Shown piece after piece: positions 8,356 through 9,144 of a stretch of DNA of 64,000 nt. The stretch lies in the sequence record NC_070985.1, one strand, 5' to 3'. Each line of letters starts with the position of its first letter. Position 1 is the first letter of the stretch. The translations under genes were made by a program, and so were the position numbers. The stretch is from Escherichia phage O18-011. The notes under the pieces were generated by a model. It did not search any database. It was not told the origin of the DNA and was given only the letters and a program-made list of their open reading frames with translations.

Positions 8356-8500
8356 GTGTAGGGTTGACCTACCTCTTTTAGAGAGTGCTCAAGGAAAGGC
8401 ACTAGCCACTACGTTGGAGTGGTATCAGGACCAGTACACAGAATGTGCTGCTAATCACAATGGATTGTTAGAAGCTCTGAAAGAGCGTGGAATAGAATAA
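8240..8500 (+). CDS. o-spanin-like (Rz1-like) outer-membrane lipoprotein, overlapped with 8005-8355
   Basis: [20 protein letters not shown]: basic n-region, hydrophobic core, lipobox LSAC; starts inside previous gene in a different frame. Confidence 0.45.
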
Positions 8501-9144
8501 TGGCGAAGAAAACAACACCTACAAGATATCGCATTCATGGAATCCCTATTAAGTACATCTCAAACTATGAAGAGTTTTACAGAGTGAACTGGAAAGTAGT
8601 TCACAAGTTCTTCATGTACGATATCAGGGATTATCATGAAGCAGAAGATGTGGCACAGGAAGTGCTCTTGAATGCTTGGAGATTTGTCTTCGCTAAGCAG
8701 GATGAGAGAGTCCTAGAGGACGAGAAAGACCAAGAGCATATGACTTATCGAGTCAAGAACATTATCTGGTCTATACGCTCAAATAGGCAGACTGTAGGGG
8801 ACCGTCGTATCTACTCTATTCCAGAGGCTGATATGTTCCGTACCCCTGATATGGTTGATAGTCCTTTAGAGATTACTATGGATAAGCAAGATTCTGTTGG
8901 TGACCCATTCATGGAATCTCGTATCTTCTACTTCTTCCAAGATTTAAGCGATACGATGGATACTCAGAAGTTAGCTAATATGTTCTCAATGATTTTCTTG
9001 GGTATTCCCCATGACCACATTCAGAAAACTATTGGCATGTCACATGGAACTTTCTACCGACGTTATGCAGAGTTAAAAGATCTGTATGAATATGTGGTAG
9101 AGAAGCATTTTGATAAAGAAGAATTTCAAGGAATGATCGCATGA
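8500..9144 (+). CDS. ECF-type sigma factor-like protein
   Basis: [17 protein letters not shown] resembles sigma region 2 of RpoE-type factors (DVVQEAFIKAYRAL); C-terminal [30 protein letters not shown] resembles region 4 HTH; by eye. Confidence 0.55.

Follow-up and report, generated by a model that had tools for sequence, protein, structure and literature searches.

Background

The closest described relative of the sigma factor examined here is gp36 of the coliphage phiEco32. According to the later papers that cite the promoter mapping of Pavlova (2012) (PMC8948821, PMC12276001, PMC4281155), gp36 directs middle and late transcription from promoters other than those of sigma70. Two of these papers describe its promoter as one element, tAATGTAtA, in which the centre of AATGTA falls at -11.5 and from which transcription starts 6-8 bp downstream (PMC8948821, PMC12276001). 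The six phiEco32 promoters listed there are P6 (TAATGTAgA), P13, P26, P40 and P58 (all TAATGTATA) and P68 (aAATGTATA), equivalents of the six are predicted at the same places in NJ01, 172-1, SU10 and others, and the seventh base of the 9-mer is A in all six promoters listed for six phages (PMC8948821 Table S3).

Binding of gp36 to host core RNA polymerase and initiation from the complex have been shown in vitro and by cryo-EM (PMC12276001). The structure 9M7Y (Xu et al., NAR 2025, PMC12276001) is an open complex of E. coli RNA polymerase with gp36, a second phage protein, gp79, and promoter P68. In this complex, residues 1-103 of gp36 form an N-terminal domain with a sigma2-like fold, bound to the clamp helices, a long linker passes through the active-site cleft in the manner of sigma3.2, and residues 138-214 form a C-terminal domain with a sigma4-like fold, bound to the flap tip helix. 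The residues that stack at the upstream fork are W90 and Y83, while A-14, A-13, T-12 and G-11 are read by N95, S91, S94, E79 and H80, and G-37 and A-34 are touched by R187 and Y186 (PMC12276001). The partner gp79 is both an inhibitor of the sigma70 holoenzyme and a co-activator of gp36; it removes sigma70 region 4 from the core, after which its N-terminal helix docks on the gp36 C-terminal domain and raises the activity of P26 and P68 three- to four-fold (PMC12276001).

Results and discussion

A kuravirus genome and its ends

The window, by which we mean the whole stretch of 64,000 nt analysed (Escherichia phage O18-011, NC_070985.1), comes from a phiEco32-like coliphage (Kuravirus, a Gordonclarkvirinae podovirus) whose nearest relatives are 172-1 and NJ01. 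Its identity to kuravirus genomes is 93-96%. A 4-kb stretch around the sigma factor ORF is matched by 99 phage records, led by Escherichia phages 172-1, PE006 and NJ01 at ~95-96% identity, and the counterpart of the ORF is annotated as 'RNA polymerase (ECF) sigma factor' in the matching phiEco32-like phages. About 13 kb of the genome falls outside the window, in which gene 80 lies at 62638-63834 and gene 58 at 893, with genes 79-59 mostly outside. The window also carries one tRNA-Arg (anticodon TCT, 51182-51257, +), as reported likewise for other kuraviruses.

The phiEco32 record (NC_010324) has an identical 193 bp at its start and end. Bases 1-233 of phiEco32 align with window positions 42111-41879 at 81% identity, and its right end aligns with 42429-41940. 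Because the terminal repeat aligns only once and right-end sequence continues beyond it, we infer that the window was taken from a circularised assembly and that the physical left end of the genome lies at ~42111. The coordinates of this repeat and of the other features discussed below are collected in Table 1.

Two further repeats were seen around the termini. The motif ACGGG(G/T)A occurs six times in and just beside the 193-bp terminal repeat (42019-42075 and 42399-42456, -) and is also present in the terminal repeat and right end of phiEco32; these copies are candidates for a signal recognised when the termini are formed. A 26-nt segment is duplicated at 41837-41904 (+; TATATAAGAGTTTAAAATACAGATTT and TATATATCTGTTTAAAATTCTGATTT), in the interval that separates the terminal repeat from the first left-end ORF, and is present in one copy in phiEco32; it may represent a duplicated early promoter region.

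Table 1. Positions of the sigma factor gene, the promoter sites, the left-end genes and the repeats in the window
Feature	Position	Strand	Details
gp36-type promoter, P58 equivalent, middle	848-856	+	TAATGTATA, exact; 37 nt before ORF 893-1210
gp36-type promoter, P40 equivalent, middle	7132-7140	+	TAATGTATA, exact; upstream of ORF 7200-7946
Candidate sigma70-like promoter inside upstream spanin gene	8240-8268	+	ATGAGA-17-TATAAT, 10/12 positions
Sigma factor gene, phiEco32 gp36 ortholog (by sequence)	8500-9144	+	214 aa, ATG start; ORF, PDB 9M7Y chain F, PHROG 1740
gp36-type promoter, P26 equivalent, late	17091-17099	-	TAATGTATA, exact; RBS and ATG 38 nt downstream, at 17052
gp36-type promoter, P13 equivalent, late	34117-34125	-	TAATGTATA, exact; 33 nt before ATG at 34083
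gp36-type promoter, P6 equivalent, first late promoter	40334-40342	-	TAATGTAGA, one mismatch; 11 nt before ATG 40322
Intrinsic terminator ending left-end operon just before P6	40358-40373	-	GCCTCCCTTGGGAGGC then TTTTTGTGTT
Gene 5 homolog	41011-40379	-	PHROG 'moron ... ABC transporter'
Gene 4 homolog	41258-41004	-	
Membrane ORF just downstream of array	41365-41255	-	36 aa
Repeat array	41390-41533	-	6 degenerate direct repeats, yrTGr-N4-SCCTT(T)A, period 14-16 nt; the 16-mers of the first-pass annotation
Zinc-ribbon ORF just upstream of array	41680-41519	-	53 aa
Direct terminal repeat, single copy marking the physical genome ends	41919-42111	-	193 bp; alignment to phiEco32 ends
gp79 ortholog, start of gene	63841-64000	+	gene runs past window end; first 53 aa identical to phiEco32 gp79

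The sigma factor is an ortholog of gp36

Judged by its sequence, the 214-aa product of ORF 8500-9144 is a phage sigma factor and the ortholog of phiEco32 gp36. Compared with solved structures, it aligned to chain F of 9M7Y with three differences over residues 1-213 (E = 5e-144), the substitutions relative to phiEco32 gp36 being R28K, T126A and M212L, none of which affects a contact residue. It also matched the PHROG 1740 family, 'RNA polymerase sigma factor' (1.7e-45). We took the list of contact residues from the phiEco32 gp36 structure paper (PMC12276001) and checked it position by position. All promoter-contact residues (E79, H80, Y83, R84, W90, S91, S94, N95, Y186 and R187), all clamp-helix contact residues (D44, E47, E49, D50 and E54) and every published residue in contact with gp79 or the flap tip helix are kept in the window protein. 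The first-pass annotation, which had described this ORF and named its product a phage sigma factor, is confirmed on both points by the near-identity to 9M7Y chain F and by the PHROG match.

The same annotation had seen segments resembling regions 2 and 4 and compared the protein to RpoE-type sigma factors of the ECF class. This likeness holds for the layout of the protein: with RpoE-type ECF (group 4) sigma factors it shares the two sigma2-like and sigma4-like domains, the linker in the cleft and a length of about 200 aa. In the profile searches, every ECF profile aligned weakly and below its curated cut-off. Pfam Sigma70_r2 scored 19.1 bits against a cut-off of 24, NCBIfam TIGR02937 (sigma70-ECF) scored 23.1 bits against a cut-off of 42.9 with an alignment covering residues 23-192, and the Pfam search gave no region-4 match. 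ECF promoters follow a bipartite GGAAC/CGTC pattern, whereas the gp36 promoter has a single extended -10-like AATGTA (-14 to -9) and only two contacts in the -35 region. ECF sigma factors are also paired with a cognate anti-sigma factor and gp36 instead with the co-activator gp79; no anti-sigma gene is annotated next to the sigma gene.

Another phage sigma factor at a syntenic position, gp47 of Salmonella phage 7-11, drives late genes as gp36 does. It is, however, only about 15% identical and uses a bipartite promoter, GTAAtg-(16)-aCTA, and phage 7-11 has no gp79 homolog. In comparison with phiEco32 itself we detected no functionally significant difference, P68 and most of gp79 lying outside the window: the sigma gene comes after the spanin genes in both, the promoter motif is shared and stands at the same five syntenic sites, and a gp79 partner is encoded here too.

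Immediately upstream of the sigma gene is a pair of overlapping spanin genes (7981-8500, +). The o-spanin-like ORF starts at 8240, carries the lipoprotein signal LSAC and ends in a stop codon that overlaps the sigma ATG (TAATG), and an intrinsic terminator at 7969-7986 sets the spanin/sigma group apart from gene 40. The candidate sigma70-like promoter inside the upstream spanin gene is a possible early source of sigma mRNA, sigma70-like sites around it being no more numerous than expected by chance. A sigma70 promoter has likewise been predicted within the gene upstream of gene 36 in phiEco32 and SU10.

Predicted gp36 promoters stand at five syntenic sites

The element TAATGTATA is present in the window in 5 exact copies, against 0.57 expected by chance, and none of 100 shuffled sequences reached 5. 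Four of these copies, together with one TAATGTAGA, are located 11-59 nt upstream of syntenic genes. ORF 893-1210, behind the P58 equivalent, equals phi32_58 in length, ORF 7200-7946, behind the P40 equivalent, is a homolog of phi32_40 and NJ01_049, and TAATGTAGA at 40334 (-) is identical to the published P6 variant TAATGTAgA. The ORF that begins at the ATG at 40322 (39849-40322) is a candidate gene for the small terminase. In phiEco32, P26 is gp36/gp79-dependent in vitro (PMC12276001). Five of the six published gp36 promoter sites are thus found in the window, and the sixth, P68, belongs to the part of the genome outside it. These five assignments rest on synteny and motif identity with phiEco32, and by the same criteria the P6 equivalent is taken as the true start of the virion block. 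The expectation that a phage sigma factor implies late promoters distinct from the sigma70 type agrees with what is known of gp36.

Given the near-identity to phiEco32 gp36, a mechanism for the window protein can be proposed. The sigma factor would be made as a middle gene and would take the place of sigma70 on the core RNA polymerase of E. coli. The sigma2-like domain at its N-terminus would read A-14, A-13, T-12 and G-11 of the single tAATGTAtA element and the sigma4-like domain at its C-terminus would contact the -35 region, while gp79 would displace sigma70 region 4 and simultaneously stabilise the gp36 open complex.

Some additional elements resemble the gp36 promoter or accompany it. The late P26 and P13 equivalents share TAAGACCTA 14-15 nt upstream of TAATGTATA (17114-17122 and 34140-34148, -), about where the sigma4-like domain of gp36 contacts DNA, and the middle promoters are without it; TAAGACCTA could be a -35-like element for that domain. 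Four TAATGTATA-like elements are clustered around the P40 equivalent (7051-7150), among them an exact TAATGTATA copy on the opposite strand (7060-7068, -) that faces away from the annotated genes and an inverted partial copy immediately after the P40 equivalent. This cluster may give rise to divergent or antisense gp36-dependent transcription. Inside the terminal repeat, TAATGTAAT (42057-42065, -) has an intact AATGTA core and faces the left-end genes; the sequence at its position is TAATGTATT in phage Paul but TAATGAATA in phiEco32. The element may be a gp36 promoter that serves the left-end operon in some lineages only.

A conserved repeat array in the left-end operon

The 16-mers that had been put forward as candidate sites for the sigma factor do exist as repeats. 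Three 19-nt copies are found at 41414-41432, 41472-41490 and 41502-41520, each matching the reference copy at 79% identity. With the degenerate pattern, 5 copies are found between 41390 and 41517, and a sixth (41519-41533) shares bases with the stop codon of the ORF upstream. Read on the - strand, the units are GTGGACAGGACTTAA, GTGACATGGCCTTTA, ATGACAGTGCCTTAA and ATGAAGTCCCCTTTA, followed after a 41-nt spacer by ATGACGTGGCCTTTA and TATGCCTAGCCCTTTA. Their orientation had been called ambiguous, but it is a single one, co-directional with the - strand genes. Elsewhere in the window the degenerate pattern gave only scattered 1-mismatch matches, and the array, which is non-random, is confined to one intergenic gap.

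The array is present in 14 of the 14 related genomes inspected, with 5-8 units in each, and spans three genera of Gordonclarkvirinae: Kuravirus, Suseptimavirus (SU7) and Nieuwekanaalvirus (EP335). In phiEco32 (NC_010324) it occupies bases 411-475 and 625-675. The array region is matched by 73 phage records, and those that begin at the physical end have the array at about 400-700 nt. Each unit has two short blocks that are kept across the 14 genomes, with 4-5 variable nt in the middle. In every case the 3' end of the zinc-ribbon gene forms the first unit, and the array begins at the stop codon of that gene. We found no mention of the array in the papers that we consulted.

One repeat unit of the window is interrupted by an 18-nt near-palindrome, AGTCATCAAAGATGACGT (- strand, 41423-41440). 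A palindrome of this type is found in the fourth unit in the window, SGF2 and AidaStucki and in the third unit in EC.W2-6 and ES17, and has the look of a short insert that was transferred or copied from one unit to another.

From the left end, the order on the - strand is a small ORF, the zinc-ribbon ORF, the array, the membrane ORF, the gene 4 and gene 5 homologs, the terminator and the P6-type promoter. The repeats had been placed just upstream of the virion block; they lie instead ~1.05 kb upstream of the first late promoter, with three ORFs and the intrinsic terminator in between. Because of this distance and the insulating terminator, we assign the repeats to a short operon distinct from the virion block. 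The corresponding left-end genes of SU10 are classed as early and are expected to be under hypothetical sigma70 promoters. Family searches with the neighbouring left-end proteins returned a single informative match, a weak zinc-finger match for gp1. In phiEco32 the annotated phi32_1 (NC_010324 296-496) differs from the conserved zinc-ribbon ORF (CxH...CxxC) at 253-417, which is the one annotated in ES17, and the deposited phi32_1 ORF reads through the repeat array; gene 1 of phiEco32 thus appears to be annotated in the wrong frame.

Several searches of the array for known kinds of element were negative. Neither a sigma70-like promoter (-35/-10 with 16-18 nt spacing) nor a terminator was found in 41380-41540 on either strand, the RNA fold of the region was not better than that of shuffled sequences (z = -1.1), and the array had no match in Rfam. 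Tandem Repeats Finder did not report it, as its copies are too degenerate. We also considered and rejected a Rho-utilisation site, the region having more G than C in each of the 14 genomes, and a coding role. By inspection, periods of 14 and 16 nt shift the reading frame, and the longer ORFs that run through the array do so in frames that differ between phages. A chain of mini-ORFs (4-5 codons with ATGA/TAA overlaps) accounts for several units, but it is disrupted in phiEco32 and other phages, and we judged it unproven.

What the array might do

The reading that we favour, although it falls short of being probable, is that the repeats are DNA or mRNA binding sites for a sequence-specific protein; the zinc-ribbon protein encoded directly upstream would be the obvious candidate binder. 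A broader reading, which we rate slightly higher but likewise short of probable, is that the array is a functional cis-element that has gone undescribed, either an operator or mRNA-binding array for the zinc-ribbon protein or a packaging or ejection signal like the short repeats (SRL) of T7.

Alternatively, the array might have no function and consist of degraded tandem copies of the final 15 nt of the zinc-ribbon gene, acting as micro-homology for the gain and loss of small accessory genes. The identity of the first unit with the 3' end of that gene is in keeping with such an origin, as is the range of copy number from 5 to 8. Small ORFs have been inserted between differing units (the membrane ORF in SGF2 and Ptacy1479, gene 2 in phiEco32, ES17 and EC.W2-6), further ORFs follow the last unit in the window and in 172-1, and the 18-nt palindrome breaks different units in different phages. 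Nevertheless, the two short blocks of the unit are kept across three genera while the intervening bases and the flanking coding DNA diverge, which is not expected for neutral sequence, and the orientation and position of the array are invariant. We consider the functionless reading doubtful for these reasons.

The array might also act at the genome terminus, in concatemer processing, packaging or DNA ejection, and not in gene regulation. In T7, ~12 copies of CCTAAAG with a 12-15 nt period directly follow the 160-bp terminal repeat. Like the T7 SRL, the Kuravirus array has many 6-7 nt cores in the same orientation, with a period of 12-16 nt, close to the left end of a genome bounded by direct terminal repeats; it is always in one orientation at about 400-700 nt from the physical left end, and kuraviruses are thought to replicate and package as T7 does. 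However, the T7 core is different and has the opposite orientation relative to the genome end, and the Kuravirus array does not abut the terminal repeat but lies between ORFs within a transcribed operon. The gap between array and terminal repeat, from ~220 bp in phiEco32 to ~385 bp in the window, holds one or two ORFs. There is no mirror array in the right-end stretch examined, and the motif concentrated in and beside the terminal repeat is a different one, ACGGGKA. To our knowledge, the function of the T7 SRL has itself not been established, which we also count against this reading. A role at the terminus seems unlikely to us.

The proposal of the first-pass annotation that the 16-mers are cognate late promoters of the sigma factor would require a gp36 element within the repeats. 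The consensus AATGTA does not occur in the array of any of the 14 genomes. A variant, AATGTG, is found in 5 of the 14, at one junction in the window and at one or two junctions in 4 of the 13 others, and is missing from 9; the orthologous junctions without it read AACGTG or AACATG, so that the A-13 and T-12 bases contacted specifically by gp36 are destroyed. The window junction reads TAATGTGAC (41521-41513) and keeps all four gp36-contacted bases, A-14, A-13, T-12 and G-11. Weak gp36-dependent initiation may occur there, but AATGTG junctions such as this one are not conserved. Although the repeats are real and are clustered upstream, in the sense of the - strand, of structural genes, we regard their being gp36-dependent late promoters as highly improbable, given the lack of the full tAATGTAtA consensus, the invariable A at the seventh position of the listed promoters, the loss of AATGTG in most genomes, the intrinsic terminator and genuine P6-type promoter that stand between the array and the virion genes, and the absence of the array motif before other late operons. 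The available sequences thus do not support a promoter role, and the repeats appear to lie outside the gp36 regulon.

Conclusions

We consider it very probable that the locus as a whole is explained by a gp36 ortholog acting on five TAATGTAnA promoters, with the 16-mer repeats outside its regulon. The sigma factor is in effect already known, a near-identical protein having been published with its structure and mechanism, and since the promoter consensus, the RNA polymerase structure and the co-factor are all described for that protein, the identification in itself matters little. What changes is the promoter assignment, which passes from the 16-mers to the five TAATGTAnA sites. The 16-mers are part of a non-coding repeat array that is shared between genera and lies close by the genome terminus, and this array offers a modest lead for studies of left-end gene control or of DNA packaging in kuraviruses.
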